From an uncultured Gammaproteobacteria bacterium (GTDB taxonomy: Bacteria; Patescibacteriota; Patescibacteriia; UBA9570; XYC2-FULL-38-9): 64,000 nt of DNA. The notes under the pieces are model-generated. The model was not told where the DNA came from. It saw only the letters and a list, made by a program, of their open reading frames with translations, and did not search any database. How positions within the stretch are numbered: position 1 is the first letter of the stretch; each line of letters opens with the position of its first letter. The translations under genes were made by a program, and so were the position numbers. The stretch spans positions 13,218 to 77,217 of the forward strand of contig CAZBLE010000001.1 in the NCBI GenBank assembly GCA_964492735.1. The letters are read 5' to 3'. Below are positions 1 to 61,790 of the stretch, one piece after another.

Positions 1-1050
1 CAGAACGGTGCTTGCGCCGTTCCCAAGTTCCGCGCCAGCAACGCCGAGGCGAACGCCAGACACAGAACCAGGAACCGAGAACTGCCGCGCTCCAGTCGCA
101 GCGTCGAACACCGTCATCAACCCGGCGTCACGACCGGTGACAATGGAGTCGAAGCGGGAATCGCCGACCGCGATGCGCCCGCCCGTCAACGGCAGCGTGA
201 AGTACGGGAACCACTCCGGTATTCCCAGGTCATCCGTGATGCCATGGCTGTAAAAGACCGCGCCGTAGCTTTCCAGATCGGTGACGAGGTGGTCGCCGCT
301 CGGGATACCGAAGAAGCCGGCAGTCGACAAGCAGTAGAGCCCGCCGATGCTTGCGTCTGCGTTGGAGTTGCCGATGCAGACCATGTCCGTCTGCGTGCCA
401 TCGATGAGCGTACGCGGGCCGAACTCGATGTCGGCGTAGGCGTTTTCGCCCACACCACCCAGAGTCAACCGCGCCACCGAAGCGGCGTTCTGCACGGCAG
501 AGGCTCCGGTAACGAGTGGGAGGGCATACACCTTCCCAGCCGCGGGTTCGCCTACTGCCCCCTCCGCGTACTGCTCAGCAGAGATGACGACGGTGCCGGT
601 TTCGTCTCGGAGGATCTGGCACTTGATGCCGAGGTGCCCTCCTTCGATGCCCCCGAAGAACTTCGTCGTTGTTCCTTGGGAGCTGGTGCAGGTCAAGGAC
701 CCAGCACCGTTCAGATCCCTGGGAACTCCGGGGGCGGTCTCGTCGTACGCACCGACGCAGGTCCAGTCCGGATTGGTGTCATCTCCCTCAATGGAGCAGG
801 CGACGTAGCCATACTCCGAGCCGCCAGTCGCGGTCGTGACGACGTTGCCGTCGAGGCGGATAGCATCCACCTCCTGAACGAACTGTACGTCAGCGCACGG
901 ATCTGACAGGTCGGTGTCAACCGGTCCAGTCGTGTCCGTGTCGTCCGCGGTCGTGTCAGCCGGGTCCTTGTCGACCTCGCCCGTGCAGGCGACGCCGAAT
1001 CCCAGAGTCAGCGCGACCCACAGCAATGTCAATATGCGAAAGGGATTCAT
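1..1050 (-). CDS. High-GC secreted lipoprotein-like protein, N-terminal 350 codons; the gene runs off the window start
   Basis: Manual translation of the minus strand shows an uninterrupted frame from the ATG at 1048-1050 to position 1. It is absent from the ORF track only because it is truncated. N-terminus MNPFRILTLLWVALTLGFGVACTGE is a signal peptide with a lipobox-like Cys. Gly/Asp/Thr-rich with FG-GAP-like stretches. About 65% GC versus about 42% elsewhere. Confidence 0.6.
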   Translation of the reverse strand, partial: MNPFRILTLLWVALTLGFGVACTGEVDKDPADTTADDTDTTGPVDTDLSDPCADVQFVQEVDAIRLDGNVVTTATGGSEYGYVACSIEGDDTNPDWTCVGAYDETAPGVPRDLNGAGSLTCTSSQGTTTKFFGGIEGGHLGIKCQILRDETGTVVISAEQYAEGAVGEPAAGKVYALPLVTGASAVQNAASVARLTLGGVGENAYADIEFGPRTLIDGTQTDMVCIGNSNADASIGGLYCLSTAGFFGIPSGDHLVTDLESYGAVFYSHGITDDLGIPEWFPYFTLPLTGGRIAVGDSRFDSIVTGRDAGLMTVFDAATGARQFSVPGSVSGVRLGVAGAELGNGASTVL

Positions 1051-1205
1051 CGCAACTCTCCTTGTTTTGCGCTCGCAATTATTACGAGCACTAAAGAGAC
1101 AAGCTCGTCCCTTAGCGCTCACAACAATAACGAAATGAGGTCTAAAATTTGCGGACAGTGTACTGATTTTTGACAAAATGTCAAGTCATAGTACACTCTA
1201 TTCCT

Positions 1206-5477: not shown

Positions 5478-7052
5478 TTATTGATTGACTGGAAAGGCTT
5501 TACGGTTTTGCGCAATAATCGCATACGCACTATTGAGTGACTCTACACTATCTGAGCCAATAGTGTCATACGCATAGCTGCCATCTTTGGCATATGTTTT
5601 CTTCAGGTAACTGAAACCATTTTCATTATTTTTTGAAACACTACCCGCTTCACGTCCTTGAGCAGAGAATGCCATCATCGCCCAGGCCGTTGATGAACTA
5701 TTTGAATCTTGTCCTGCCTCATACCCAAAACCACCGTCTGGATTTTGTGCAGAGCGCAAAAATGCAACTGCTTTTGTATATTTTGTATTCAGTAATTTTT
5801 TATAGTATGCATTTTCTGTGCGGACTTTTGACGCAAACATAATCCATGCTGCAGTTGTATCGACGTCAGAATCTCCAGACACTGCATAGCTGAATCCACC
5901 ATCTGCATTTTGACACGGCAATGAACCGTTTACTGCATCCTTCATATCATCACTTGTTTTTTTCACATCAGCTGCAAGAAGAGCAAGGCCTGCAAAAATA
6001 TCATCATTGCAATAACTGCTACTACCGTATTGATTATTTGATTTTGTTGTTGTTAATCGTTTGATGAAATTAATTTTTCCTGTATTTTTACTATTTTCAC
6101 CAATAGCTTCTAATGCCAAGATATGACGCGCAATTTCACTTGTACCTTCTGCTGAAGTTGGTTGGTATTTTTTCACCGCTGCATTGAGCGCAGCATTTGA
6201 CTCACCGGCTGTTGCAAGTGCCATTGCTGACCACTCTGTTGTTGCCTGACTTTCATCAACAATCCCTTTTTTATTCATCTGCTTTTTGATGTATGCAAGG
6301 CCATTTGCTGATTGCGCAAGACGCTGATCAAAATTCACTGCCTGTCGTTTTGCTTTGACAGCATGGACTGTTACTTTTTTGACTGGCGTTTTTGTATACC
6401 CTGTCGCTGTTGCGTACACAGAAATACGACCAGCTTTATTTCGTGTGAATGTTGCTTTTCCATCTGCGTTGGTTGTTACTGCGGTTTTTCCAAAATACAC
6501 TGTTGCATTACTCATTGGAAGATAGGTTTCTCCAGATTTGTATCGCACAGTCGCAACAATCTCTTTTTCTGTTGTCGGTTGCATTGTATTTACTGTTAAT
6601 TGCAGTGGAGATGTCATGCCATAGTCACCGTACACAAACAATAACTGATCCCCATCTTCTAAATCATACTCTGATGCACCGACCGCTCCCTCAACATCGT
6701 TCACATAATATGTCCAATACTGACTATCTCCAACATATGTATCGATAGAGTTTAAAAATAAACCGAACGAAGAATTTTGAACTGCAAAATCAACATTGTA
6801 TTGTTCGCTCGCTGTTTGCAATGCACACAATGCATTAGCACCCGAAAGAGTGTGCTTCACACTTGCGCTATCTGTCACTGTGCAGTCAGCGTCTGATAGG
6901 TAAATTGTTTTATTCAAAATACTTTTATCTGGAGCTTCAATGCGAATTGTCACACCAGTATAGTTTGCAGCCTGCGCGGGTGTCGCGTTGACTGCGGCAA
7001 CGACCACAACCAGTGTGACGATGCTAGATAATTTTGTGAGGAAGTATTTCAT
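5478..7052 (-). CDS. Secreted protein with an N-terminal DUF4430 domain and alpha/alpha-toroid (prenyltransferase/terpenoid-cyclase-like) repeats
   Basis: Signal peptide MKYFLTKLSSIVTLVVVVAAVNATPAQA. DUF4430-like block (...YWTYYVNDVE...LEDGDQLLFVYG). Repeated (N/Q)xDGGFxY...AWxMxAF motifs as in squalene-cyclase/prenyltransferase beta-subunit repeats. Confidence 0.6.
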   Translation of the reverse strand: MKYFLTKLSSIVTLVVVVAAVNATPAQAANYTGVTIRIEAPDKSILNKTIYLSDADCTVTDSASVKHTLSGANALCALQTASEQYNVDFAVQNSSFGLFLNSIDTYVGDSQYWTYYVNDVEGAVGASEYDLEDGDQLLFVYGDYGMTSPLQLTVNTMQPTTEKEIVATVRYKSGETYLPMSNATVYFGKTAVTTNADGKATFTRNKAGRISVYATATGYTKTPVKKVTVHAVKAKRQAVNFDQRLAQSANGLAYIKKQMNKKGIVDESQATTEWSAMALATAGESNAALNAAVKKYQPTSAEGTSEIARHILALEAIGENSKNTGKINFIKRLTTTKSNNQYGSSSYCNDDIFAGLALLAADVKKTSDDMKDAVNGSLPCQNADGGFSYAVSGDSDVDTTAAWIMFASKVRTENAYYKKLLNTKYTKAVAFLRSAQNPDGGFGYEAGQDSNSSSTAWAMMAFSAQGREAGSVSKNNENGFSYLKKTYAKDGSYAYDTIGSDSVESLNSAYAIIAQNRKAFPVNQ

Positions 7053-8044: not shown

Positions 8045-8779
8045 GTGCAGTTATACACATCTATTATGATTCATTCTCTTCCTTCACGACTCGCCTTTCT
8101 CTTCGGTTTTTTTCTCACCACAGGCATTATCATGACGATTGGTTTTATTCTTGCGCTCAGTGTTTTTCTCTCTGGCGCATTGCAAAAAAACACAGACGAT
8201 ACGCCATCAACTGTCACGAGCGCGCCTGTTGAAACAGAACAAACAACAAAAATTGACCTCACAACACTCCGTCACACAATCGGCAAAGGTGACTTTACAT
8301 TGATTGAATACACTGATCTTGAGTGTCCATTTTGTAAAAAATTTCATCCAACTGTTGAAGCAGTGATGAAAGACTATGACGGGCGCATGCGTTATTCAAT
8401 GAAACACTTTCCACTGAACATTCATCCGAAAGCACAGAAAGAAGCGCTAGCAGCAGAATGTGCTGGTCAACAAAATCAATTCTTTGAATTTGTTGATGCG
8501 ATTTTTGCAACAACACCAAGTAATAATAAACTGGAGGAGTCCGTTTTGTTTGACACTGCGTCACAACTAGGACTCCAAATGGATCAATTCAAAACCTGTG
8601 TAGAAACCGAGTCTTTTGCACAAGAAGTAGCTGATGATGCTGTTGAGGCTCAAGCCACAGGCGGTACCGGCACACCACACACTATCATTGTTGATAAAGA
8701 CGGAAATATTGTCACTGGCATCCGTGGTGCAGTTTCTGAAAAACAACTACGAGACGCGATTGATTCGATTCTACAATAA
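8045..8779 (+). CDS. DsbA-like thiol:disulfide oxidoreductase (thioredoxin fold), membrane-anchored
   Basis: N-terminal TM segment and a CPFC active site (DLECPFCKKFHP) with a DsbA-like C-terminal region. Confidence 0.7.
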   Translation: MQLYTSIMIHSLPSRLAFLFGFFLTTGIIMTIGFILALSVFLSGALQKNTDDTPSTVTSAPVETEQTTKIDLTTLRHTIGKGDFTLIEYTDLECPFCKKFHPTVEAVMKDYDGRMRYSMKHFPLNIHPKAQKEALAAECAGQQNQFFEFVDAIFATTPSNNKLEESVLFDTASQLGLQMDQFKTCVETESFAQEVADDAVEAQATGGTGTPHTIIVDKDGNIVTGIRGAVSEKQLRDAIDSILQ

Positions 8780-14430: not shown

Positions 14431-15393
14431 TTAAATTTTTTCGATGATGCGGAGTTTTGCGCTACGAGCGCGTGGGTTAGATGTTATTTCTTCTTCAGTT
14501 GGAATAATGGGCTTCCGTGTAATCTGCTTCCCTATCGCCCGATGATCACAGCGACATTCAGGAATTTCTGGTGGGCAGATACAGTCTGTTGCAAGGTCGC
14601 GGAACGCATGTTTCACAATCCGATCTTCCAATGAATGGAAGGTAATGATCGCCAGACGACCACCTACTTCAAGTCTCTGCATCGCTTCTGGAATAAACTG
14701 CTTGATATGATCAAACTCGTTATTCACTGCAATGCGTAAGGCTTGAAATACAGTTGTTGCTGGATGCACGCGTGACTGACGTCGCTTAGCTGGCGCGGTA
14801 AGGCGCACAACAAGCTCTGCAAGATCACTGACTGTTTCAAAAGGAACGTCTTTTCGGTCTGTCGCAATGGCCTGCGCGAGTTTACGAGCTTGTGGATATT
14901 CTCCATAGTCTCGAAAAATCTGCGCGAGCGTTTCTTCAGATGCAGTGTTAATCAACTCAGCAGCAGTTTTGCCGGTGGTTTGATCAAAGCGCATATCAAG
15001 TGGCCCATTGCCGTGGAACGAAAAGCCCCGTGAAGGATCGTCGATTTGAATGGATGAATATCCAAGATCTGCCAGAATTCCTGTAATCGGACCGTGCTGA
15101 GAAAGCTCATCAGCAAAGTAATTTAGGTTACTGTACGAATCGTGGATGCCAATGAACCGATCGCCAAACTCTGTATGCAACTCTGCTGACGTTGCGTGAA
15201 GTGTCGCGGCGTCGCGGTCGAAACCAATGACAATGCCTCGCGGTGCTGTTCGTTTGAGGATTTCGCGGGTATGCCCTCCTCCACCAAGTGTCGCGTCAAT
15301 AATCGTGACATTTGACGAGAGGTGTAAGCCCTCAAGCGTTTCATGTAAAAAAACTGGTATGTGTTGTTGATTATTCATCTTCACCTTCTTCAA
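14431..15393 (-). CDS. rsmH: 16S rRNA (cytosine1402-N4)-methyltransferase
   Basis: SAM-binding ATLGGGGH motif and ...ITFHSLEDRIVK... conserved MraW block. Confidence 0.9.
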   Translation of the reverse strand: MKKVKMNNQQHIPVFLHETLEGLHLSSNVTIIDATLGGGGHTREILKRTAPRGIVIGFDRDAATLHATSAELHTEFGDRFIGIHDSYSNLNYFADELSQHGPITGILADLGYSSIQIDDPSRGFSFHGNGPLDMRFDQTTGKTAAELINTASEETLAQIFRDYGEYPQARKLAQAIATDRKDVPFETVSDLAELVVRLTAPAKRRQSRVHPATTVFQALRIAVNNEFDHIKQFIPEAMQRLEVGGRLAIITFHSLEDRIVKHAFRDLATDCICPPEIPECRCDHRAIGKQITRKPIIPTEEEITSNPRARSAKLRIIEKI

Positions 15394-25945: not shown

Positions 25946-25989
25946 ATGGATAAAAATAATTTATTTAGATAAAGCAGAAATGCGCAGGT

Positions 25990-26022
25990 GTAAAAATGAG
26001 ATTTCTACACCTGCATTAGCGC
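25990..26022 (-). terminator. Hairpin terminator downstream of high-GC lipoprotein gene 26039..26392
   Basis: GCAGGTGTA-13 nt loop-TACACCTGC, followed on the minus strand by a T-rich run. Confidence 0.5.
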
Positions 26023-26038
26023 GTCTCGTATATGACGA

Positions 26039-26392
26039 CTAGCAGGAGCCGACCTGCAGCCAATAGGAACTGGGCCTATTGACCATCGAGCAATACCAAG
26101 AGCCGCGCCACTCAACCCACATGTAGAGGCGGTGGAAAACGCAGTTGGTGCTGCCAGAGTAGTACAGATAGCAGCTGCCTCGAGGCATGCCGCCGCCCAT
26201 GAACTCGTCGGTGTCGGAGATGCTGCCAGTGTCAGAGGGTTCGTTGACCTCGGACTGCTCCAGACTGACCTCCGGGTACAGGACCGGGTCGTGCTGTTCC
26301 GTACAACCACCGGTGAAGGCGGTGAGAACGAAGGTGAGCAGCAGGTACATGACCTGCCACTTGAGGATGATACGCGACATGGCGCGCTCCAT
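26039..26392 (-). CDS. Small high-GC Cys-rich secreted lipoprotein-like protein (variable cargo 1 of the conserved 5' module)
   Basis: N-terminal 32 aa (MERAMSRIILKWQVMYLLLTFVLTAFTGGCTE) are identical to those of gene 43326..44024; the rest is unrelated. About 60% GC. Confidence 0.6.
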   Translation of the reverse strand: MERAMSRIILKWQVMYLLLTFVLTAFTGGCTEQHDPVLYPEVSLEQSEVNEPSDTGSISDTDEFMGGGMPRGSCYLYYSGSTNCVFHRLYMWVEWRGSWYCSMVNRPSSYWLQVGSC

Positions 26393-26642
26393 TGTACTGC
26401 TCGCTGCGGGTTGTTGCTGGGCTTCGAGTGACGAAACAACAGCAGGTGCAACGAGTCTGAACGAATCTCTTCGCCAGAAGGAAAGGCGCGAGGGTGGACC
26501 CGGGCTTCTTTCTGGAAAGTGATTCGCTGATATTGTGAATGAACTATAGAAGAATCATACGCAAGCCTTCTTGCTTTTGTATATGGCGAAAAAACGCCGT
26601 CTGGGGAAAACTCAAAAAACCCTAAACATTAGATAAAAAAAT
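26299..26642 (-). repeat. Conserved 5' module, copy 1 (promoter-proximal -10 region, ~240-nt 5'UTR and the first ~32 codons)
   Basis: About 344 bp, about 99% identical to 43931..44272 (one substitution and one A-run indel). Weaker similarity continues to about 26690. Confidence 0.9.
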
Positions 26643-29576: not shown

Positions 29577-30383
29577 TTATTTTTTTGATTTTAATTTTAC
29601 CAATGCTCTTTCAATGTAAAGAAGGCCCGCTCCCATTAAAAAATATGATATTGAATAAATAAAATCATTTACACCACCAACATACCAACTATCATTATTC
29701 GTTTGAAATAAAAACATGAAATCAGCAAAGAATTGAGTAGTCAATGCAAATAATAATAGAAGCACTGGAAATCTCATTAATCCTTTGGCATAATTAAAAG
29801 ACAAAAGTAGAATACTAACTGTTAATGCTAGATATATTGACTGTCCTATTGGATAGGCATAATTTAAAATACTGATCAATAATTCAGATTTATCAAAAAT
29901 ATAATTTCTTAAGAAAAATCCATAGACAATACTGAAGGATACTAACGCAACTAAAATAATTAAAAAAATATTTTTAATTTCTTTTAGTTGCCTACCAATA
30001 CCCATTGCGAATCCTAAATATATAGCACCAAAAAAATAAAAAACTATACTGCCAAAGTAACCAATATCTCCTACCGATGGAAAAGCCTCTGTGTCCAATA
30101 TATAAATATAATAAGCATATACAAATTGTCCAAAAAACTGAGAAAACAGGCCTAATGATAAAAAAATAATTGATTTTCCAATGTAACTTTTATAGCCACC
30201 CCATTTAATAGCACTCAATGCTCCTAAAATTGAACCTAGTAATGATAAAATAGGATAAGCAACTGTGTAGAGATTGTTGTGAATTGTGTCAATGTAATTG
30301 TTAGAGTAAATAAATCCCCACCAAATAGAAAGTACTAAAAAAATTAATGACAAGCCAACGTATTTAATGGTATTTGCATTCAT
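29577..30383 (-). CDS. Polytopic membrane protein
   Basis: 268 aa with about 8 TM; 4-nt overlap with the upstream gene. Confidence 0.5.
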   Translation of the reverse strand: MNANTIKYVGLSLIFLVLSIWWGFIYSNNYIDTIHNNLYTVAYPILSLLGSILGALSAIKWGGYKSYIGKSIIFLSLGLFSQFFGQFVYAYYIYILDTEAFPSVGDIGYFGSIVFYFFGAIYLGFAMGIGRQLKEIKNIFLIILVALVSFSIVYGFFLRNYIFDKSELLISILNYAYPIGQSIYLALTVSILLLSFNYAKGLMRFPVLLLLFALTTQFFADFMFLFQTNNDSWYVGGVNDFIYSISYFLMGAGLLYIERALVKLKSKK

Positions 30384-31252
30384 AAGTGTAATTGATATTT
30401 TTTTAGAAAAAACTTTGGCTTTAAAGATTTTTTAAAATACCTCAAACCTTCAATGCCTAAGTCTTGTTCAAAATTAATATATTTAATATTTTTTTCTTGC
30501 AAAATATTCGCTACCGCATTTATTAAATAATGCGCAGAACCTTTATATAAGGTATCAGTTTTTTGAAAATGAAACAATGCATAATCCTGATTTAGGATTT
30601 CATAAAAACAAAATCCAACTATACTACCATCAATAAAAAATCCTAATTCTTCAGTTTTAATATCAATTTCACTTAGATGATAACGAAAATACTCAGTCAT
30701 TGCTTTTTTCTCTTTGATATTAAAATGCTCATTTTTTTTATCAGAAAAAAATTTATCGACTTTTTCTACGTCTACAAAATGAATATCACCTTTATCATAT
30801 TTTGCCAAAAAACGATTTTTCATATTTCTAATAGTAGCCATCTCACTATTTTCTAGTTGAGCAAGTTTTTGAACACTTAAAATATAATCAAAATTATCAT
30901 CATCCAATATGACCGGATATCCCAACCTACTTAATCGTTTCGCTAAGTGTTCTGGGATGTATTTTATTTTTTTATTCGGATAAAACCGGCTTAAAAGATG
31001 CATCAGATAAATAAGATTCTCATCGCTAACTTCTTTTTTTATAATGATAGATACAAAAAAATCATTTGATACATAGTCCTGCATTAGCAAAATTGCACCC
31101 TCATCAAAAAAACATACGCTTGCGTCATTTTTACACCAACTCCATAAGCTAGTAAAATTATGATCGGAGTATGGCGGGTATTCATTTGTAATACTTTCAA
31201 TTTTAGAACGATCAGTTATTTTGATGCTTCTAAAATTTAATTTGATATTCAT
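30380..31252 (-). CDS. Hypothetical protein, possibly DUF2156 (aminoacyl-phosphatidylglycerol-synthase C-domain)-like
   Basis: 290 aa soluble protein translationally coupled to the downstream polytopic membrane protein. The family assignment is from memory of domain size and architecture only. Confidence 0.3.
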   Translation of the reverse strand: MNIKLNFRSIKITDRSKIESITNEYPPYSDHNFTSLWSWCKNDASVCFFDEGAILLMQDYVSNDFFVSIIIKKEVSDENLIYLMHLLSRFYPNKKIKYIPEHLAKRLSRLGYPVILDDDNFDYILSVQKLAQLENSEMATIRNMKNRFLAKYDKGDIHFVDVEKVDKFFSDKKNEHFNIKEKKAMTEYFRYHLSEIDIKTEELGFFIDGSIVGFCFYEILNQDYALFHFQKTDTLYKGSAHYLINAVANILQEKNIKYINFEQDLGIEGLRYFKKSLKPKFFLKKYQLHL

Positions 31253-31263
31253 TTACAGTATTT

Positions 31264-31746
31264 TTATGATTGATATTGATATACCGCCAGACTTATTACT
31301 GAAATAGGTAAGTCAATGCAAACTGTTGCGTGTATATTTTTATCTACAAACGAAGAGTCAAATTTAATTTTCCGACGCTCACACATATCTTGAAGTGTCT
31401 GATCAATTAGCCTAGATACTTTTAAATAAACATCTGACCCACCTTTAGCGTGATGTTCAACAAAAAAACCCTTACCTTCTTCAATTTTATACCACCCAAT
31501 ACCCGCTGCTATATGCTCTTCAATTTTAGAAGTAGTTTCGAATGCCTTGACAACATAAAGTCTTTTTCCAAAATCCTCTTCTGGTGTTATATAATTCTCT
31601 ACTTGTTTTATATTAGAGTTGGGGGGTATGATAGAAGATAGATAAATTAAATTGTAATTTGAAACACCGGCATTAAACAGGGCATCGTCAAAAGAAGAGA
31701 GTTCAGTACTCCCAGTTCCAACTCCTCCAGTAATAATAATATCCAT
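31264..31746 (-). CDS. pdaD: Pyruvoyl-dependent arginine decarboxylase
   Basis: ...FDDALFNAGVSNYNLIYLSSIIPP... matches the PdaD self-cleavage region (cleavage between the two Ser of the SS pair); 160 aa. Confidence 0.7.
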   Translation of the reverse strand: MDIIITGGVGTGSTELSSFDDALFNAGVSNYNLIYLSSIIPPNSNIKQVENYITPEEDFGKRLYVVKAFETTSKIEEHIAAGIGWYKIEEGKGFFVEHHAKGGSDVYLKVSRLIDQTLQDMCERRKIKFDSSFVDKNIHATVCIDLPISVISLAVYQYQS

Positions 31747-31841
31747 ACTATAATACTAGTACTTATATAAAAAACCATTATACAGTATAGCACAAAATAA
31801 AAAAATCTTTATACTTTTTTTTAAACTAATCGCCCAATTTT

Positions 31842-33290
31842 CTAACGGCTATAACGATCTGATTGTATTTTTGTATAATCAACACTCATTTGCCAGCGTA
31901 AAACAATAGGCAGTATCTCTTGACCAAAATCATGAAGTTCTTTCAATTTTTCAATATGCTCACGCTTAAATGGCATATTATTTTTATGCCTGCCAATAAA
32001 AAAAATTCCTAAGGTTGAGTTTATAAAAGGAAGGGTATTTGATTGAACTAAGAATAACATTTTTGCATTCATTTTTTGCATGATTTTGGGCAGCGTCGTA
32101 TGGCTATACTCTTCTTCAATCTTCCCTACTGTTAAAATCATAGGAAGACCTTGCAATTCATCTACAAACTCTGAATCAAATAAATAATATCGATTAGTTT
32201 TCTTTTTTGGAAAAAATTCTACAAATCTACTCATGTGTTTTTGTTGTACATAAACAGAAACTACTGGCGCCTCAACAGCTTCTTGAATCATCCCAGCATA
32301 CTTAAGCAAAAAAGACTCAAGCTCATGGGTTGAATTTAACAAAAAATCTCGCTCAGAAATATATTTTGAAAAATCCAATGTTTCACGCATAAATAAATTA
32401 TTCATCAACTTTGTCACAAATAATGAAAATAAATGAAAGAAAAAAGTAAACACAAAAACTGACAATAGGAAATAGGCAATAATTTCTTTGGTCCCAACTA
32501 TATTACGTAACACAAAAAAATACACGGACGAAACTGCCAAATAGTACATTAGTGTAAACAAGCTAAATAATGTGAGTTGAAAAATTCGTTTTTGTACAAT
32601 GATGCGAATATTAAATAATCGCAAGCGCACAATAGCGTAAAGCATAAATAATCCAAGAACATAAACACTTAACGGCCCATATAATGTACTTACATATTGA
32701 TTAAAAAATACTGGTAGGATGATATTATTCCAAAAACCAAAGAGAAATGTCACAGAAAATCCAGTAGTAATATATCTAAGTTGTGTTCTATAGCGAACAC
32801 TATTGTTTGGATTGCGATATTCTTGAATTAATAAAAAAAGTGTATACCCAAAAAATGCAAACGCATATGGTAAAAATAAGTAGTATACTGGACCGAGATT
32901 TATTTCATCATAATTTGGATTACCATGAATAAAATACGATGCTGTGTAGCTAGTAAACGAAAACGGAAACAATACCCAGGCAATGACATATATGTTTAAT
33001 TCACGAATTTTTGAAATTTCAGTTTTTGTAAAAACGTAAACAAAATGTAAAAATGTTGCCGGAAAAAATATAACAGCCGTTAATGACCAGCGCGATAAAT
33101 AAATCATTAATACTGGGTCTGTGATAAAATGCGCTATTACATGAATACCACTCCATAAAAATAATTGTAGGCAAATAAATGAAAGCAAAATAACCACCTT
33201 ATTAAAAGATCTATAATAAATAACAACTAGAACAATAGCAGATAATAAAAAACAAACTCCAAATAGGCTGATAAGAAAAAATGTGTTCAT
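31842..33290 (-). CDS. Membrane protein: N-terminal ~8-TM domain plus a ~180-aa cytoplasmic C-terminal domain
   Basis: 482 aa; resembles 7TM-receptor-type sensor N-domains but has no kinase motifs. Confidence 0.45.
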   Translation of the reverse strand: MNTFFLISLFGVCFLLSAIVLVVIYYRSFNKVVILLSFICLQLFLWSGIHVIAHFITDPVLMIYLSRWSLTAVIFFPATFLHFVYVFTKTEISKIRELNIYVIAWVLFPFSFTSYTASYFIHGNPNYDEINLGPVYYLFLPYAFAFFGYTLFLLIQEYRNPNNSVRYRTQLRYITTGFSVTFLFGFWNNIILPVFFNQYVSTLYGPLSVYVLGLFMLYAIVRLRLFNIRIIVQKRIFQLTLFSLFTLMYYLAVSSVYFFVLRNIVGTKEIIAYFLLSVFVFTFFFHLFSLFVTKLMNNLFMRETLDFSKYISERDFLLNSTHELESFLLKYAGMIQEAVEAPVVSVYVQQKHMSRFVEFFPKKKTNRYYLFDSEFVDELQGLPMILTVGKIEEEYSHTTLPKIMQKMNAKMLFLVQSNTLPFINSTLGIFFIGRHKNNMPFKREHIEKLKELHDFGQEILPIVLRWQMSVDYTKIQSDRYSR

Positions 33291-37300: not shown

Positions 37301-37330
37301 AAAAGAGATTGAATTGTTAAAGATTGTTGA

Positions 37331-37359
37331 AGTATATGAGAAAAAGGCTAAAATCGCAA
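37331..37359 (-). promoter_or_regulatory. Candidate sigma70 promoter of ileS
   Basis: Minus strand reads TTGCGA, 17 nt spacer, TATACT, about 30 nt upstream of the proposed ileS start. Confidence 0.4.
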
Positions 37360-37368
37360 GAAAAAGGC

Positions 37369-37397
37369 TTGACAAGAATAGTATTTTATGGTAATTA
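37369..37397 (+). promoter_or_regulatory. Candidate sigma70 promoter driving the high-GC membrane methyltransferase gene
   Basis: TTGACA, 17 nt spacer, TAATTA in low-GC sequence, about 105 nt upstream of the ATG at 37503. Divergent from the ileS promoter. Confidence 0.4.
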
Positions 37398-37502
37398 CTT
37401 GCCCCTGTAAAAACGACTTTTGCTGAAAAGCGAAGCAGTTTTTTGCTCCCTACAACGCGGCAGAAATGCCAAACACGCGGCTCACAGCCGCAACGTGGAG
37501 AC

Positions 37503-38321
37503 CTCATGGTCAACGTCATTTTTACCCTCTGTTTTCTGATCGTCACCACCCCGAGCGTGCTGCGGCGCGCCCTGGTTGCCCGGGCAATCGCCTGGGCCAA
37601 CTTCCGCGACACGATCGGCAGCGTCAAAGGCTGGGCCAGCATGCGCTGGTTCATTAACTACTACAAGATGATGACTCCGCTCGTCGTCTTGGACCTGATG
37701 GCCTACTTCGAGACCTGGAGCTCGACGGCATGGATTTACTTCGCGGCCCATAGCGCGTACTGCCTGGTGTGGCTCGTAAAGGACAACAAATGGCCGCACT
37801 CCAGCTTCAGCGGCTTGATGCTGAACTGGCAAGGCCTTGCCGGCCTGTGGTTCAGCGTCTTGGGCGCCTTCTGGGTCTGCCCGACGCTGCTCATGGCAGG
37901 GCACATCGAGGTTCCGCTTTGGTGGGCGGCGCTGTGCGGCAGCATGACCATAACAGGCGGCGCGATCACGTACGTCGCCGATGGTCACAAGGCGGATCAA
38001 GTTGCAATCGCGCGCGCGAACGGTGAGAAACACCCACTGATCACGAGCGGCCTGTGGCGCCACATCCTTCACCCGAACTACACGGGTGAAATTGTGACCT
38101 ACACAGCACTGTCCGCCTTCCCGCTTCCGTGGGCATTCATTGCCACGGACTGGCGCTGGCAGGTTGCGGCAATTGTGCCGCTGGTGATCATGGTCCAGGT
38201 GTTCTGGAACGCCATGTTCCCGAACATCTGTCGGATCAACCAGCACATGCTGCAAACCCGCGGTGAGCGCTGGACCCAGCACACGCAGCAAGCCTGGCAG
38301 ATCCTGCCGTATATCTGGTAA
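37503..38321 (+). CDS. High-GC polytopic membrane protein of the ICMT / DUF1295 / steroid 5-alpha-reductase-like methyltransferase superfamily
   Basis: ...LITSGLWRHILHPNYTGEIVTY... matches the RHPNYxGE signature. About 62% GC. An alternative start at 37443 is possible. Confidence 0.6.
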   Translation, partial: LMVNVIFTLCFLIVTTPSVLRRALVARAIAWANFRDTIGSVKGWASMRWFINYYKMMTPLVVLDLMAYFETWSSTAWIYFAAHSAYCLVWLVKDNKWPHSSFSGLMLNWQGLAGLWFSVLGAFWVCPTLLMAGHIEVPLWWAALCGSMTITGGAITYVADGHKADQVAIARANGEKHPLITSGLWRHILHPNYTGEIVTYTALSAFPLPWAFIATDWRWQVAAIVPLVIMVQVFWNAMFPNICRINQHMLQTRGERWTQHTQQAWQILPYIW

Positions 38322-41977: not shown

Positions 41978-42445
41978 CTATACGTTCATGAATTTTTTCT
42001 TCGCAAGGTAAAAATGTATTACTGGAATTGCGATAGCTATACAAACTGTAATAAATGCCGTATGTACAGCCGTAGCAAAAACCACCTGCTTTAATACATC
42101 GCTCGGGATATATGCGAACTTGAAGGAAACAAAATGAATAAACATAATACTCAAAAATATTAACCCCATTACTCCCCCAAGTGTCCAAAATAAATTTTTA
42201 GTGTGTAACAAATGATCTTGTTTCATTATTAATAATTGACGGACAAAATATGGCACGATCAATAAAAGGTAAGATAATAAAAATATTGGAAAAAGATAGA
42301 TAGCGAAATTGAGAAAGTTATTAGGTGTAATAAAAGGCAACGTTTGCATGAACAATGAAAATGCAATCACCGGCAGACTTAGCTGTGTGATCAATTTTTG
42401 TAAATCTTTTAGAGTTTGCATAGGTCTGTAAATTTTTATTGACAC
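41978..42445 (-). CDS. Hypothetical polytopic membrane protein
   Basis: 155 aa with about 4 TM. Confidence 0.45.
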   Translation of the reverse strand: MSIKIYRPMQTLKDLQKLITQLSLPVIAFSLFMQTLPFITPNNFLNFAIYLFPIFLLSYLLLIVPYFVRQLLIMKQDHLLHTKNLFWTLGGVMGLIFLSIMFIHFVSFKFAYIPSDVLKQVVFATAVHTAFITVCIAIAIPVIHFYLAKKKFMNV

Positions 42446-42858
42446 TCTTTATTCAAAATACGTTCACGAATTTTTTGTTCGTCCTGTTCTTCAAAAACAG
42501 TTTTTAAATTTAACTCGTCACTGCGATTTATGCAATATAAGTATACTTGTTTCGTCTCATGAACATAATTCATATAAAATTCACGCTCACTATTTGCATA
42601 CACTATATCACTCTGTCCGTATGGAAGGACTTCAAATGTTGCATTAGGATACTGTTCAAGAAATAATTGAATCACAGGATTATTTTTCATTGCTTGAATG
42701 CGCCTTTCTACCTCTTTATCTTGTTGATAACCGTGAATAAAAAAAGCCAACAAAAGACAAATTAAAATTGCAAGGGCAAAAACTAAAAAGAAAATGAAAC
42801 GTTTATTTGTCATATGTATTATTTTATTTCCCAACCTTGGTAAACCCCCGGCGTACAA
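42436..42858 (-). CDS. Hypothetical N-terminally anchored small protein, paralog of the next gene
   Basis: 140 aa with an N-terminal TM. LEQYPNATFEVLPYGQSDIVYANSE...VYLYCINRSDE parallels FEKQYPGVVKEKLYGRNYVIRYHV...LYLACEGSQ in the next gene. Confidence 0.45.
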   Translation of the reverse strand: MYAGGLPRLGNKIIHMTNKRFIFFLVFALAILICLLLAFFIHGYQQDKEVERRIQAMKNNPVIQLFLEQYPNATFEVLPYGQSDIVYANSEREFYMNYVHETKQVYLYCINRSDELNLKTVFEEQDEQKIRERILNKECQ

Positions 42859-43220
42859 ATAGCTTCCTGCTGAATCATTACTTTAAATTCATCAGGCGTA
42901 ATATTTTTTACTGGCTCACTCTCCAACTGACTGCCTTCACATGCTAGATAGAGACGCTTATATGAATCTGTCGCTAAAGCAAATTCTGAATCTTTTAGTT
43001 GAACATGATAACGAATTACATAATTACGACCATATAACTTTTCCTTTACCACTCCAGGGTACTGTTTTTCAAAAGCTTGAAATATTTCATCTTTCTGCAC
43101 TGTCCTGTAAGCTTGATTTGCTGGTTGATAAAATAAATACCCCCAGACAATGAATGCAAAACATAAAATAATTGCACTGGCTGATACAGCAATAAGAATA
43201 TAGAAGGGGATTTTTTTCAT
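42819..43220 (-). CDS. Hypothetical N-terminally anchored small protein, paralog of the previous gene
   Basis: 133 aa with an N-terminal TM and sequence similarity to 42436..42858. Confidence 0.45.
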   Translation of the reverse strand: MKKIPFYILIAVSASAIILCFAFIVWGYLFYQPANQAYRTVQKDEIFQAFEKQYPGVVKEKLYGRNYVIRYHVQLKDSEFALATDSYKRLYLACEGSQLESEPVKNITPDEFKVMIQQEAICTPGVYQGWEIK

Positions 43221-43261
43221 CGGATAAAAAATATTATTCTGACTTTTGATTAAAAAGAATG

Positions 43262-43307
43262 CTGAGAATTAGCAGTAAATCACTAAGATTACTACTAATT
43301 CTCAGAG
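43262..43307 (-). terminator. Rho-independent terminator of high-GC lipoprotein gene 43326..44024
   Basis: 17-bp stem CTGAGAATTAGCAGTAA/TTACTACTAATTCTCAG with one mismatch, followed on the minus strand by TTTTT. Confidence 0.6.
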
Positions 43308-43325
43308 AAGACCTCGGCCTGAAAG

Positions 43326-44024
43326 CTACCGCATCTGCTTGAGCTGCATGTGCGCCATGTAGGAATCGAGGGACTTCGGCCAACAGGCATAGACACTGTG
43401 CTGTCCGTTGCCGTCGTTCTTGTAGATCTCGACGCCGTAGTGACCCTCCCAGGCCCAGAGGTAGAGGCGAGGCCACCAGTGGGAGGAGTAAGCCTTCAGC
43501 TTGGACTGCTGCCCACGGTAGTCACGGTTCATCCAGAAGCTAACCACCCAATCATCGTTGCCGCACTGTGCCGGCTTCGTGTAGAAGTAGCAGTTGGGCG
43601 ACCAGATGTTGGAGTAGTTTGTTCCTGAATCATAAGGCACTTCACCGAAGCCAATGATGCGACCATCCTTGTAGTGACAGTCCGGCAGGAAGGTCGGCGG
43701 CGGAGCCTTCTGTCCGTCCATGTTGATGATCGTGTCATCGGGATCATCGTGAGGAATACCGAAGTACTCGATCGCGTCGATAAGATCCTGACGCTCCTCA
43801 GCACTCATGCCCTCGACGACCGTGAAGTCATCGACCTTGAGCTGCTCAACGATCTGAACCACCTCGTCGTAGGTCCAGCCGCGGAACTCCTCGGCCTGCT
43901 CAAACGCCTGGCTGTCGATGCTCGACTCCTCCGTACAACCACCGGTGAAGGCGGTGAGGACGAAGGTGAGCAGCAGGTACATGACCTGCCACTTGAGGAT
44001 GATACGCGACATGGCGCGCTCCAT
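43326..44024 (-). CDS. High-GC secreted lipoprotein-like protein (variable cargo 2 of the conserved 5' module)
   Basis: N-terminal 32 aa identical to gene 26039..26392. The mature part (Trp/Tyr-rich, ...WWPRLYLWAWEGHYGVEIYKNDGNG...) is unrelated to it. About 60% GC. Confidence 0.65.
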   Translation of the reverse strand: MERAMSRIILKWQVMYLLLTFVLTAFTGGCTEESSIDSQAFEQAEEFRGWTYDEVVQIVEQLKVDDFTVVEGMSAEERQDLIDAIEYFGIPHDDPDDTIINMDGQKAPPPTFLPDCHYKDGRIIGFGEVPYDSGTNYSNIWSPNCYFYTKPAQCGNDDWVVSFWMNRDYRGQQSKLKAYSSHWWPRLYLWAWEGHYGVEIYKNDGNGQHSVYACWPKSLDSYMAHMQLKQMR

Positions 44025-44272
44025 TGTACTGCTCGCTGCGGGTTGTTGCTGGGCTTCGAGTGACGAAACAACAGCAGGTGCAACGAGTCTGAACGAATCT
44101 CTTCGCCAGAAGGAAAGGCGCGAGGGTGGACCCGGGCTTCTTTCTGGAAAGTGATTCGCTGATATTGTGAATGAACTATAGAAGAATCATACGCAAGCCT
44201 TCTTGCTTTTGTATATGGCGAAAAAACGCCGTCTGGGGAAAACTCAAAAAACCCTAAACATTAGATAAAAAA
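43931..44272 (-). repeat. Conserved 5' module, copy 2
   Basis: About 99% identical to 26299..26642. Sequence further upstream (putative -35 region) diverges between the copies. Confidence 0.9.
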
Positions 44273-44334
44273 TCAATGGCTCATTTTAAAAAGTCGCCAG
44301 AATCGGGGTATTTTGCTACTGTTGTCTATATTGT

Positions 44335-49781: not shown

Positions 49782-49853
49782 CTACTCCTCCCCTTCAAAC
49801 TCCTCCATCTCTTTCAGCAGTTTTTTGAATTTGCGAGATGGGTATTGTAGGTG
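49782..49853 (-). repeat. Duplicated dnaJ 3' end, direct repeat copy A (remnant of the last ~23 codons plus a stop)
   Basis: The reverse complement encodes ...YPSRKFKKLLKEMEEFEGEE* ; about 94% identical to the dnaJ terminus at 51178..51249. Confidence 0.8.
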
Positions 49854-51177: not shown

Positions 51178-52290
51178 TTATTCCTCCCCTTCAAACTCCT
51201 CCATCTCTTTGAGGAGTTTTTTGAATTTGCGAGATGGGTATTGTGGGACATGAATATTCACTTTCACAAGATGGTCACCACGACCGTGTCCGTGCAACCG
51301 TTGAATGCCTTTTCCACGCAGTCGCAAAATCGTTCCGGCGGTTGTTCCGGCTGGAATTTTTAGATCAACCAATCCGTCCAGTGTTTCAACTTCAATACGA
51401 CCACCGAGGACAGCAGTTGGATATGACACCAACTCTTCCACAACCACATCATCACCTTGGCGTTGAAAATTTTCATGGGACTTCACATGGACCACGACAT
51501 ATAAATCACCGGCTGGTCCACCAAATTGCCCAGCCTCACCTTGGCCGCTCATTCGCATGGTTTGTCCATCTTCAATACCGGCTGGAATATTCAACTCAAG
51601 GGTGGTGTTCTTTTTTTCAATCCCGTTTCCACGACACGTTTTGCACGGTGTCTTCACTGTTTTGCCGCGACCATTACAACTTGAACAGGCAACTTGCGTT
51701 CGAATTTGCCCGAAGACGCTGCGCTGAATCTGGTCAACCACGCCTGAACCTTTACAGGTGTCGCAGGCTTCAATTGGCGTTCCTGGCTCTGCGCCGTTTC
51801 CAGAACAGTGTGAACAGGTCGCCCCTTTATACAGCTCCACTTCTTTTTTGACGCCAAAGGCTGCTTCTTTGAAATCAATCGTCGTGTCCATTTGAATATC
51901 TTGGCCACGCTGCTGCGCGCTCGCACCGCCACGTCTGCGTCCACCGCCAAACAAATCACCAAAAATATCGCCGAGATCAAACTCCACGCCTTGGCCGCCG
52001 AAACCGCCTTGGCCTCCAGCTTGGCGCATAATATCTTCCCAATTCATGCCAGCGCCGCCGCCGAAACCGCCTTGGCCATTCACACCCGCTTCTCCAAATT
52101 GGTCGTAGGCGCTGCGTTTTTGCTTATCTGAAAGGACTTGATACGCCTCATTCACCTCTTTGAATTTCGCTTCATCGCCACCGTCTTTGTCAGGGTGATA
52201 TTTGTGCGCAGCTTTCCGAAACGCCTTTTTAATCTCATCTTCTGAGGCGGTTTTTGAAACTCCTAAAATATTGTAATAATCTTTTGCCAT
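51178..52290 (-). CDS. dnaJ: Molecular chaperone DnaJ
   Basis: J-domain with HPD (KYHPDKD), G/F-rich region and four CxxCxGxG zinc-finger repeats. The last 23 codons make up direct repeat copy B. Confidence 0.9.
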   Translation of the reverse strand: MAKDYYNILGVSKTASEDEIKKAFRKAAHKYHPDKDGGDEAKFKEVNEAYQVLSDKQKRSAYDQFGEAGVNGQGGFGGGAGMNWEDIMRQAGGQGGFGGQGVEFDLGDIFGDLFGGGRRRGGASAQQRGQDIQMDTTIDFKEAAFGVKKEVELYKGATCSHCSGNGAEPGTPIEACDTCKGSGVVDQIQRSVFGQIRTQVACSSCNGRGKTVKTPCKTCRGNGIEKKNTTLELNIPAGIEDGQTMRMSGQGEAGQFGGPAGDLYVVVHVKSHENFQRQGDDVVVEELVSYPTAVLGGRIEVETLDGLVDLKIPAGTTAGTILRLRGKGIQRLHGHGRGDHLVKVNIHVPQYPSRKFKKLLKEMEEFEGEE

Positions 52291-53356: not shown

Positions 53357-53438
53357 GGGGAAGTAGCTCTCAAAACCCCGTTCGCTTCGCTCTCTGGCAG
53401 CAGAGCTGCTAATTGGTTTTGAGTAGCCACTTTCCCCT
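53357..53438. repeat. Inverted repeat element, copy L; it is itself a long imperfect hairpin
   Basis: GGGGAAGTAGCTCTCAAAACC...GGTTTTGAGTAGCCACTTTCCCC. Its core is about 91% identical to the reverse complement of 54597..54662. Confidence 0.8.
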
Positions 53439-53479: not shown

Positions 53480-54007
53480 TTATTTTTTTGGCTCAATGCC
53501 TAACTCTAATAAAATACAATCCGCTGAACCTACTTTATTATCCTCCAATTTACATTCAACTTTTTTTATAGAATTGAGTAATTGATTATATTGCACGCCG
53601 TCGATTTTGAGATATTGTGTCTCATCTATTTTAACGGGAACAATCACTTGCCATATTCCAATCATTAAAGCAATTAACGAAATAAAAATAGCGATTAAAG
53701 AGTATTTTTTAGCATCTTGTGCATTTACTCGCGCTAATTTTAATTCATCATATTCAATTAATTTAAAATACCCCTCAAAAGAAATTGCATATCTCCAATC
53801 CAGCATTGGTTTATTCGGATATTGAGTAAGGATTTCCACAACTTCTCGCCTGTCAAATACACTGATTAAATAATTTTCCCATTCTGGAAATTTTTCTAAT
53901 GCTTCTTTTTGTGTAAAACCTGATTTTTGAGACACACAATACCGAAGAAACTGAATCTGAAAATCATTATCGTCGAGGAACTCCTTTGTTCTTTTTCGGT
54001 AGGTCAT
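53480..54007 (-). CDS. Hypothetical cassette protein with a central TM helix
   Basis: 175 aa; about 33% GC; 4-nt overlap with the upstream cassette gene. Confidence 0.5.
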   Translation of the reverse strand: MTYRKRTKEFLDDNDFQIQFLRYCVSQKSGFTQKEALEKFPEWENYLISVFDRREVVEILTQYPNKPMLDWRYAISFEGYFKLIEYDELKLARVNAQDAKKYSLIAIFISLIALMIGIWQVIVPVKIDETQYLKIDGVQYNQLLNSIKKVECKLEDNKVGSADCILLELGIEPKK

Positions 54008-54522
54008 TTTATTTCGGATATTTTTCTTGGAATCTTAATTTTTCCTTTTTGATAAAAATGAAAACTGTACTTATTTAATAATTTCATGGCTTGAAATAAA
54101 TCTTTCGTGTCTCGATTAATTTTTTCTAAAGATGTACTACCTGAGTATTTATCAGCGGTTCCAAATTCAGTATGTGTTTCAGAAAACATAGCCTTTGAAG
54201 CAAGCGTCCAAAACTTTTTATTTACAGTACTATGAACATGATCATTTCGTGTGTTTATAATTTTCTGTAAAGAAGTAATTAATTCATGATTTTTTGGATA
54301 AAACTTTGCAAGATATTTAATTATTTCTTTAGTACTGTGTCCTTGAAGATTGGTTTTTTTATAGTTACGAGCATTTAAATCTTTTATAATCAACTTTTCT
54401 ATTCTAACGTTAATATCATCAGCATGTTCTTTAATACTACTAATAAAAATATTAAAAAACACTTGATAAATAAAATGTGCTTCTAAAAATTCATTTAAAT
54501 TCTGATACTCTTCTTCGTCCAT
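54004..54522 (-). CDS. Hypothetical all-alpha cassette protein; possible HEPN-like Rx4H motif
   Basis: 172 aa. ...INTRNDHVHST... fits the Rx4-6H motif of HEPN domains. Speculative. Confidence 0.45.
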   Translation of the reverse strand: MDEEEYQNLNEFLEAHFIYQVFFNIFISSIKEHADDINVRIEKLIIKDLNARNYKKTNLQGHSTKEIIKYLAKFYPKNHELITSLQKIINTRNDHVHSTVNKKFWTLASKAMFSETHTEFGTADKYSGSTSLEKINRDTKDLFQAMKLLNKYSFHFYQKGKIKIPRKISEIK

Positions 54523-54587: not shown

Positions 54588-54670
54588 AGGTGTGGTGTCT
54601 ACTCAAAACCAATTAGCGGCTCTGCCGCCAGCGAGCGAACGCGAGCGGGGTTTTGAGAGACACGCACACC
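54588..54670. repeat. Inverted repeat element, copy R; long hairpin, inverted relative to copy L
   Basis: GGTGTGGTGTCTACTCAAAACC...GGTTTTGAGAGACACGCACACC. Lies 18 nt downstream of the dnaK stop. Confidence 0.8.
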
Positions 54671-61715: not shown

Positions 61716-61790
61716 TGGTACCCGCACGGAGAATCGAACTCCGATTGTCGGAATGAGAATCCGATGTCCTAGCCGTTAGACGATGCGGGC
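61716..61790 (-). tRNA. tRNA-Glu (anticodon CUC), with encoded CCA
   Basis: Minus strand: GCCCGCA-TC-GTCTAACGGCTAGGAC-A-TCGGA-TTCTCAT-TCCGA-CAAT-CGGAG-TTCGATT-CTCCG-TGCGGGT-A-CCA. Cloverleaf with a 7-bp acceptor stem (G.U first pair), U33, anticodon CTC, A37, TTCGATT T-loop. The D-arm closely resembles E. coli tRNA-Glu. Confidence 0.85.

Follow-up and report, generated by a model that had tools for sequence, protein, structure and literature searches.

The locus discussed here raises the question of why a single gene should differ so sharply in base composition from the genome in which it sits. It occupies positions 43315-44150, on the minus strand, of a 64,000-nucleotide (nt) stretch of contig CAZBLE010000001.1, to the whole of which we refer as the window, and an earlier note on this DNA had taken it for exogenous cargo, derived from a high-GC host or partner organism and captured into a native expression cassette. 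We argue for a different reading, to which we assign a probability of about 0.6, namely that this gene (gene D) is a native, inherited lipoprotein gene, that a force linked to its function, most likely selection on codons or mRNA, keeps its transcript GC-rich, and that its cargo is swapped within a shared module. The region is an intact monocistronic lipoprotein gene of a small, lineage-restricted family, and its high GC content is inherited and long maintained, not the imprint of a recent donor.

The contrast in composition from which that note had started was fully borne out. The GC content of 43315-44150 is 0.573, against 0.429 for the whole window, and a value of at least 0.55 is reached in 2.3% of all 836-nt segments along the stretch. 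Taken piece by piece, the coding sequence (43326-44024) has a GC content of 0.574 and the leader (44025-44150) one of 0.563, with 0.364 in the DNA upstream (44151-44334) and 0.287 in that downstream (43221-43314). In segments of 100 nt the values run at 0.26-0.40 below 43350, at 0.55-0.62 for 43300-44150 and at 0.34-0.39 above 44150; read along the minus strand, the step up falls between ~44200 and 44100, and the step down at ~43350-43250, at a hairpin (43262-43305). GC profiling agrees in every particular with the junctions that had been placed near 44150 and 26525 and with the return to low GC at the hairpin. Gene D has a GC content at third codon positions (GC3) of 0.80 (z = 7.5 versus core genes; core mean 0.375, standard deviation 0.056, n=50), and the same pattern, as had been stated, recurs in gene A (1-1053), gene B (26039-26392) and gene C (37506-38321), the GC3 values of all four (0.76-0.82) lying 6.8-7.9 standard deviations above the core mean. 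The overall GC content of the other three units is 0.63 (1-1053), 0.58 (26039-26525) and 0.60 (37503-38321). A mean profile over 14 GC-rich genes from six loci climbs from 0.41 to ~0.50 at -120 nt, in the leader, stays at 0.59-0.64 through the coding sequence and is down to 0.35 within 60-90 nt past the stop codon, and the direct neighbours of GC-rich genes have GC3 values as low as 0.21-0.26. The excess thus follows the limits of the transcript, from ~120 nt 5' of the start codon as far as the terminator hairpin. A separate class of very-low-GC genes (GC3 0.17-0.33) is also present in the window.

One explanation for such a mosaic would be a chimeric assembly of high-GC and low-GC reads, which would give rise to a composition jump; moreover, the Logan contig of this locus (L001; contigs of relatives are abbreviated L001-L016 and database proteins are given P numbers) breaks at the direct repeat described below. 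However, the same junctions between high and low GC are found in independently assembled contigs, namely L001 (100% identical), L003 (~95%), L002 (~80%) and the syntenic L005, which stem from JGI, ENA, NCBI and Logan assemblies of different samples, and the leader is conserved across the junction. Because they recur in separate assemblies from other samples, the junctions are not an assembly artefact, and the chance of a chimera is practically negligible.

A recent transfer, in which a coding segment of a co-occurring organism of high GC entered a native expression cassette, would likewise explain the strong contrast in composition and the AT-rich promoter and terminator flanks, and it is the relatives of gene D that speak against it. 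A search of 5.8 billion protein clusters gave 2 matches, and a full HMMER scan of 1.84 billion representatives gave nine, five of them being lipoproteins of 170-240 amino acids (aa) with the common motifs CSGYWG…YWSPNCY…CG…DD.MVSFWMGPDY. A metagenome scan with an alignment of the C-terminal domain (the full-family alignment had no searchable block there) added two true loci and a third, L013, that is probably spurious. One more candidate, P0005 (1531 aa), has a short motif only and lies on a low-GC, Bacteroidota-like contig, and it was set aside. At all nine family loci (the window, L002, L006/7/8, L009, L010, L011, L012 and L015/16), the family member has a GC content of 0.51-0.62 and a GC3 of 0.54-0.88, as opposed to a GC content of 0.25-0.47 in the flanks. 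Uniformly high GC in homologues from low-GC genomes, which the earlier note itself had named as evidence that would tell against transfer, is thus what was found, and the proposal of exogenous cargo is not supported. No relative was seen in a high-GC context among the fetched loci and in the two protein searches (5.8 and 1.84 billion). The search for a donor lineage that had been recommended returned, for D, C and A in the 5.8 billion clusters, near relatives or the source contig only; no donor homologue was found among ~15 billion proteins, and collections of phages, plasmids and viral contigs contained no relatives. Given that relatives in low-GC genomes are equally GC-rich, the odd composition looks long-kept rather than like fresh foreign DNA.

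The same point can be made at two depths of divergence. Among the more remote loci, L006 and L015 share the gene order asparaginase, 184-aa gene, single-stranded DNA-binding protein, family gene, transmembrane protein, with flanking proteins 36-49% identical and family proteins 37% identical; this shared position despite deep divergence implies that the GC-rich state either persisted or was kept alongside the genome. Closer by, gene D is syntenic in L002 with 83% aa identity, a synonymous divergence (dS) of 0.38 and a ratio of nonsynonymous to synonymous divergence (dN/dS) of 0.23, which indicates purifying selection. Gene C has a syntenic orthologue in L005 (P0003) that is likewise under purifying selection (dN/dS 0.18); core genes have a dS of 0.6-0.8. 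With gene D at the same locus in L002 and L003, gene C in synteny in L005, remote family members GC-rich in low-GC genomes and no donor homologue found, we consider a recent transfer very improbable. The idea of a host expression cassette with captured cargo therefore survives in part: the anatomy is indeed cassette-like, but a foreign origin of the cargo is not supported, although an ancient one may apply. Nor does the locus look like a recent island, since its occupancy in close relatives is not patchy (an orthologue in L002, a decaying copy in L003 and, behind the same leader, another GC-rich lipoprotein gene in L005). The window yielded neither mobility genes nor tRNA targets nor any shared cassette ends; its only tRNA is 17 kb off, and the direct repeats near gene D are the leader module itself. 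An integron cassette finds no counterpart either, as no integrase occurs among the open reading frames (ORFs) scanned and the GC-rich genes are scattered, each with its own upstream region and leader.

The coding sequences carry their GC excess at synonymous sites. Codon choice in the GC-rich genes is the inverse of that in core genes (AAG 0.86 vs 0.20, TTC 0.88 vs 0.22, AAC 0.90 vs 0.34, CAG 0.86 vs 0.30, CCG 0.65 vs 0.23), whereas first and second codon positions are hardly shifted. In their amino acids, B, C and D resemble the core genes, with fractions of Gly+Ala+Arg+Pro (GARP) of 0.20-0.25 (core 0.24) and of Phe+Tyr+Met+Ile+Asn+Lys (FYMINK) of 0.22-0.28 (core 0.26). The GC3 of DnaK is 0.36, so that GC-ending codons are not those of highly expressed genes in this genome. 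The only tRNA in the 64 kb is a tRNA-Glu(CUC) (61716-61790, minus strand). Its codon, GAG, accounts for 28% of the Glu codons of core genes as against 77% in the GC-rich genes.

That this state is maintained is suggested by a copy of gene D that has died. In L003, a strain ~95% identical to ours, the gene has a premature stop codon, has lost a conserved Cys and has suffered a 136-nt 5' deletion, which took away the leader and start, and a 101-nt 3' deletion. When changes were polarised over a 580-nt ungapped block with L002 as the outgroup, the pseudogene lineage showed 16 GC-to-AT changes as against 3 AT-to-GC changes (binomial p = 0.004), and the intact window lineage 3 and 2, respectively, in the same block. 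Between the two intact genes, those of the window and L002, the differences are symmetric (39 GC/AT sites vs 40 AT/GC). The AT-ward drift of the dead copy implies that mutation is AT-biased here and suggests, in turn, that GC is held up by something tied to function. A force connected to function or expression would oppose the AT-biased mutation, with selection on mRNA composition or codon choice as the likeliest form of it. As GC-ending codons are rare in this genome, the genes in question could possibly represent a slowly or conditionally translated "dialect" for surface and host-interaction proteins. A low dS by the Nei-Gojobori method (NG86) was also considered as a sign of synonymous constraint and was down-weighted after a check of four-fold degenerate sites, at which the proportion of differences (p4) is 0.26 for D, 0.31 for C, 0.36-0.42 for core genes and 0.17 for the neighbouring low-GC gene.

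Several observations weigh against this reading, and some of them speak for an older version of the capture idea, that is, ancient or recurrent import from an unsampled high-GC pool (e.g. actinobacterial hosts of an episymbiont) by orthologous replacement at conserved flanks. First, the usage of GCC, GGC, CCG, CTG and CGC and the excess of C over G at third positions form the pattern of ordinary high-GC bacteria; at four-fold sites, the sense strand has 0.44 C, 0.30 G, 0.16 T and 0.10 A. Second, the product of gene A is GARP-rich (0.32), and it alone looks like a protein of a high-GC organism. Third, the LGFP repeat is commonest in Actinobacteria, so that some class members, such as the GC-rich M23 peptidases of L009 and L012 that contain it, may be foreign. 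Fourth, divergence is lower in the D segment than in the core genes around it, and as p4 is lowest in the low-GC neighbour, a more recent exchange of the accessory segment explains the low divergence of D and C equally well. Import would also account for the replacement of the cargo at the same locus in L005 and for an extra GC-rich gene in L002. Beyond import, the pseudogene test comprises 19 polarised changes from one short-read contig, the GC-rich class is under-sampled (~16 genes from nine genomes, most loci having been reached via one family), and taxonomic labels conflict, in that the closest 7-kb contig (L002 = L004) is filed under a metagenome-assembled genome named "Bdellovibrionales bacterium". 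On the other side of the balance, none of the family loci examined is set in high-GC surroundings, only near relatives or the source genome gave homologues of C and A, the 37% identity of the family proteins of L006 and L015 matches that of their flanks as co-divergence would have it, the amino-acid composition of B, C and D is not of the high-GC type, and mobility genes, tRNA targets and cassette ends are missing from the window. On these grounds, we regard import as unlikely.

The part of our reading that concerns cargo exchange stems from a duplication. The earlier note had spoken of a conserved 5' untranslated region, and this takes the form of a direct repeat of 343 nt on the minus strand, with one copy at 43930..44272, in front of and within gene D, and the other at 26298..26640, in front of and within gene B, 342 of the 343 positions being identical. 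Each copy takes in the upstream region and the leader and continues through the first 32 codons, which specify the signal peptide and lipobox; identity stops two codons after the lipobox Cys, and beyond this point the mature domains of B and D are unrelated. The orthologous signal peptide in L002 is clearly diverged, which means that the two module copies in the window were homogenised recently. At the corresponding locus of L005 (12101-12808, minus strand), an unrelated 235-aa GC-rich lipoprotein gene stands between the epimerase and WecG genes, three low-GC genes found next to gene D are missing, and the upstream region and leader are still recognisable as CCCCAGACGGCG…GCCATATACA…CCACCCTCGC…TTCTGGCGA…ATTCGTCAGACTCG. 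L002 has an extra GC-rich gene (5755-6690, minus strand), encoding a His-box membrane protein that resembles desaturases and hydroxylases, between the Cu-oxidase_4 gene and the position of gene C. In L003 (1-1353; Logan SRR8640623), the flank of module copy 1, with the end of a tsaC-like gene, is joined to a D-type leader and the decayed D gene, followed by a 133-aa gene; this junction would reflect either a tandem duplication by unequal crossover between module copies or a short-read mis-join. Recombination or gene conversion within the common module of promoter region, structured leader and signal peptide would exchange the mature domains behind it. No invertible element, silent cassettes or slippage tract were seen around either module copy in the 64-kb window.

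Such exchange also invites an explanation of the composition itself by GC-biased gene conversion, whereby surface genes, as recombination hot spots subject to natural transformation and diversifying selection, would have their GC3 lifted by biased repair of heteroduplexes. The near-identity of the two modules in the face of a diverged L002 signal peptide, the hybrid junction of L003 and the cargo of L005 are all consistent with this, and so is the fact that the non-coding leader shares the GC excess. However, the GC steps are very abrupt and fall at the ends of the transcript, with neighbouring genes that rank among those of least GC. Moreover, AT-rich upstream DNA forms part of the converted module, and the pseudogene decays AT-ward. 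Lassalle and colleagues reportedly found, in 2015, a higher GC3 in recombining bacterial genes and attributed it to GC-biased gene conversion; that effect amounts to a few GC3 points over many genes, whereas the excess here is one of +40 to +60 points in single, sharply bounded transcripts, and we know of no report of strand-symmetric conversion of GC3 by +0.4 to +0.6 in bacteria. Gene conversion as the source of the high GC is therefore, in our judgement, distinctly unlikely.

Selection on the transcript, which we favour, draws attention to the anatomy of the unit. Gene D (43326..44024, minus strand; GC 0.57) encodes a lipoprotein of 232 aa and is the sole ORF of the region; an alternative start is offered by a second ATG at 44012 with GGAG 7 nt upstream. 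In the product, a signal peptide that terminates at the lipobox FTGGC is followed by a helical, acidic linker and then by a beta domain rich in Cys and aromatic residues. The signal peptide and lipobox with the invariant Cys (MSRIILKWQVMYLLLTFVLTAFTGGC), as judged by eye, are those of a lipoprotein, i.e. a substrate of Lgt and LspA, and in 7 of 8 family members (by eye; that of L012 from its ORF translation) the hydrophobic segment ends in a Cys preceded by G, A or S. The long 5' leader (44025..44175, minus strand; the 5' limit is approximate), ~130 nt of which are GC-rich, is of intermediate to high GC and, according to alignment, is kept in L002 and partly in L005. Single-sequence folds place in it a hairpin at 44106..44146, CAGAAAGAAG...CTTTCCTTCTGG followed by GCGAAGAGATTCG, with a purine-rich 5' arm and a pyrimidine-rich 3' arm that has CTGG at its end; arm sequences vary among genomes with pairing retained, and a consensus fold of three sequences shows a few two-sided changes. 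The pattern CAGARR-N6-30-YYTCTGG matches the two leaders only in the 64 kb (chance expectation 0.46) and recurs in the leaders of L002, L005, L012 and L015, while GC-rich lipoprotein genes of L009 and L006 are preceded by similar hairpins and then CCTGGGGCAAC; as the pattern was built from those very sequences, it is to be taken as a lead only. Compared with the Rfam covariance models, the leader gave no match at gathering thresholds, the best permissive one being LhrC (E = 1.4).

Upstream of the leader, the presumed promoter region (44176..44307, minus strand) is AT-rich and divergent from the WecG/TagA gene at 44335. It contains the motifs CCCCAGACGGCG (with GACGGCG at 44227-44233) and TTCTGGCGA (44294-44302) as well as a weak sigma-70-like site at 44215..44186, the matches to the sigma-70 consensus near 44200 being weak. 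Family members in L005, in L006 and (with the motif inverted) in L012 likewise have GACGGC motifs in their upstream DNA. A sigma-28 promoter or one of the extracytoplasmic function (ECF) type was considered, and the upstream region did not fit either by eye. On the 3' side, an AT-rich terminator-like hairpin (43262..43305, minus strand), kept in L002, brings GC back to ~0.3. Directly beyond it are three small genes for membrane-anchored proteins (41978..43220, minus strand; GC 0.32-0.35, GC3 0.26-0.33), which are absent from L005 and mark the sharp 3' edge of the GC-rich unit. Two of their products (42436-42858 and 42819-43220) are paralogous (27% identity, E = 1e-5) and conserved in L002. A conserved pairing of the GC-rich lipoprotein with a downstream low-GC membrane protein was discarded, since the downstream proteins are not demonstrably homologous across genomes; a transmembrane protein is a positional partner of the lipoprotein in L006/L015 only.

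Gene D shares its trait with a wider class of envelope genes, which comprises lipoproteins, M23/LGFP peptidases and membrane proteins of the DUF1295 and His-box types. Of gene A (1..1053, minus strand; GC3 0.76), a lipoprotein gene with a weak FG-GAP match, only the 5' part falls within the window; its database copy P0012 (483 aa) begins after codon 8, and the full product would therefore be ~491 aa. Gene B (26039..26392, minus strand; GC 0.59, GC3 0.82), which ends at a hairpin terminator (25984-26014), encodes a lipoprotein of 117 aa in which the signal peptide of D precedes an unrelated, Cys-rich mature part of 85 aa. Gene C (37506..38321, plus strand; GC3 0.82) encodes a 271-aa integral membrane protein of the DUF1295/ICMT-like kind, which scores above the Pfam cut-off for PF06966 (28.5 bits; cut-off 20.4) and below that for ICMT (22.1 bits; cut-off 24), and it has its own promoter, TTGACA-17-TAATTA, at ~37378-37406. 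On the opposite strand, a mechanically called 1101-aa ORF for isoleucyl-tRNA synthetase over-extends 5' into gene C (37301-37654, minus strand); the orthologue in L005 has 982 aa, which places the true start near 37300. Each GC-rich gene stands by itself, with AT-rich DNA upstream, a long leader and a terminator hairpin of its own; hairpins occur downstream of all of them, and the terminators of A-D are unrelated in sequence.

All of the ~16 GC-rich genes with a recognisable N-terminus encode envelope or secreted products. At the fetched loci they include two M23+LGFP proteins (a secreted peptidase of 862 aa and a lipoprotein of 402 aa), a lipoprotein of 298 aa with a resemblance, as judged by eye, to papain-like Cys peptidases, a membrane-anchored NAD-binding-like protein and the His-box membrane protein of L002. 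The M23 peptidases with LGFP repeats of L009 (943-3531) and L012 (2230-3438) have a GC3 of 0.75-0.76 in low-GC genomes and are candidate cell-wall-attacking effectors. In L006, a near-identical 55-nt hairpin (ACGCAGGGG.AAAG…CTTTGCCTCTGCGT) lies 3' of two different GC-rich lipoprotein genes (8690-8760 and 14680-14750), both of which are preceded by GACGGCGCT / GACGGCTCT motifs; these shared elements could serve in regulation or recombination.

How far does this class resemble systems that are already known? The variable lipoproteins (Vsp/Vlp) of Mycoplasma and relapsing-fever Borrelia share a 5' region and signal peptide and do so without an inversion of GC3. As in those systems, a near-identical 5' region and signal peptide are placed here on unrelated mature domains, and cargo is exchanged at one locus between strains; unlike in them, there are only two copies in 64 kb, where nothing like a silent archive, an invertible promoter, a homopolymer tract or a site-specific recombinase came to light. 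In Streptomyces, bldA (tRNA-Leu-UAA) and the genes with TTA codons constitute a rare-codon regulon. The parallel is a functional gene class written in codons that are rare for the genome, by which translation could be tied to tRNA supply or cell state, the difference being that a single codon is concerned there, whereas here the inversion extends to all synonymous usage and the leader shares in it; the sole tRNA seen in the window is tRNA-Glu(CUC). With genomic islands acquired by horizontal gene transfer, the class shares the sharp contrast in GC and codon usage, the accessory-type envelope genes and the varying content (the extra gene of L002, the cargo of L005), but it differs in that the composition is kept in orthologues and remote homologues, the amino acids are native-like, the genes are single promoter-to-terminator units, and neither a donor nor an integrase, a tRNA target or direct-repeat ends turned up. 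Our literature search brought up no account, for Patescibacteria or Bdellovibrionota, of envelope genes that form a GC3-rich class. The closest precedent is a Gracilibacterium with a low-GC genome, of the candidate phyla radiation (CPR), in which one predicted extracellular protein gene favours GC-ending codons (GAC:GAT 6.2:6.7, as compared with 0.83:4.79 in the genome; PMC6851277). That hypervariable surface-protein gene (Sieber et al. 2019) is similar to ours in its GC-ending codons within a low-GC CPR genome, but that case concerns one gene, rich in repeats, of one genome, for which translational pausing was discussed, and no conserved gene class, leader module or persistence across genomes was described.

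As for the organism, the window contains hrcA-grpE-dnaK…dnaJ, sufCBDSU, mraZ-mraW-PBP, WecG/TagA, DUF4430 and PspC genes, and the distant family member P0004 is annotated "Patescibacteria group bacterium"; the source genome, like the others in which GC-rich genes of this class were met, is probably a member of the Patescibacteria (CPR), with the short Bdellovibrionales contig possibly mis-binned. Three further features of the window may be recorded. A four-gene island of very low GC (29577-33290; GC 0.27-0.34, GC3 0.20-0.25) codes for an LPG_synthase_C-like protein, a pyruvoyl arginine decarboxylase, a HisKA_7TM protein and one product without assignment, and together with the GC-rich genes it makes the composition of the genome trimodal. 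Inverted repeats of 45 nt (53386-53430 and 54595-54639, 91% complementary) bracket two genes (53480-54007 and 54004-54522) that have the lowest GC in the window (0.31 and 0.25) and no Pfam match; the segment between them may be mobile or invertible. Finally, a 69-nt direct repeat (49783-49851 and 51179-51247, 94% identical, 1.4 kb apart) has one copy at the dnaJ 3' end and the other in intergenic DNA.

Taken together, atypical GC content and codon usage, which serve as the standard signal of horizontal gene transfer, here point the wrong way and mark an inherited, function-linked class of genes, so that island predictors would mis-call the surface proteome of such genomes. Mosaic GC may also disturb the binning of contigs, as the conflicting Bdellovibrionales and Patescibacteria labels hint. 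It is tempting to go one step further and to suppose that the surface and host-interaction secretome of an episymbiont-type CPR bacterium is written in a second codon dialect, of codons ending in G or C and above all in C, on monocistronic transcripts with a structured leader, although we consider this bolder proposal doubtful. Expression in such a dialect may be coupled to host attachment via tRNA supply, via nucleotide pools salvaged from a GC-rich host or via mRNA stability, and the module of leader and signal peptide may double as a landing pad for cargo swaps. If selection on transcripts is indeed what maintains the composition, it would represent unusually strong selection on synonymous sites for bacteria, and GC3 would provide a simple handle on candidate host-interaction genes in uncultivated episymbionts.

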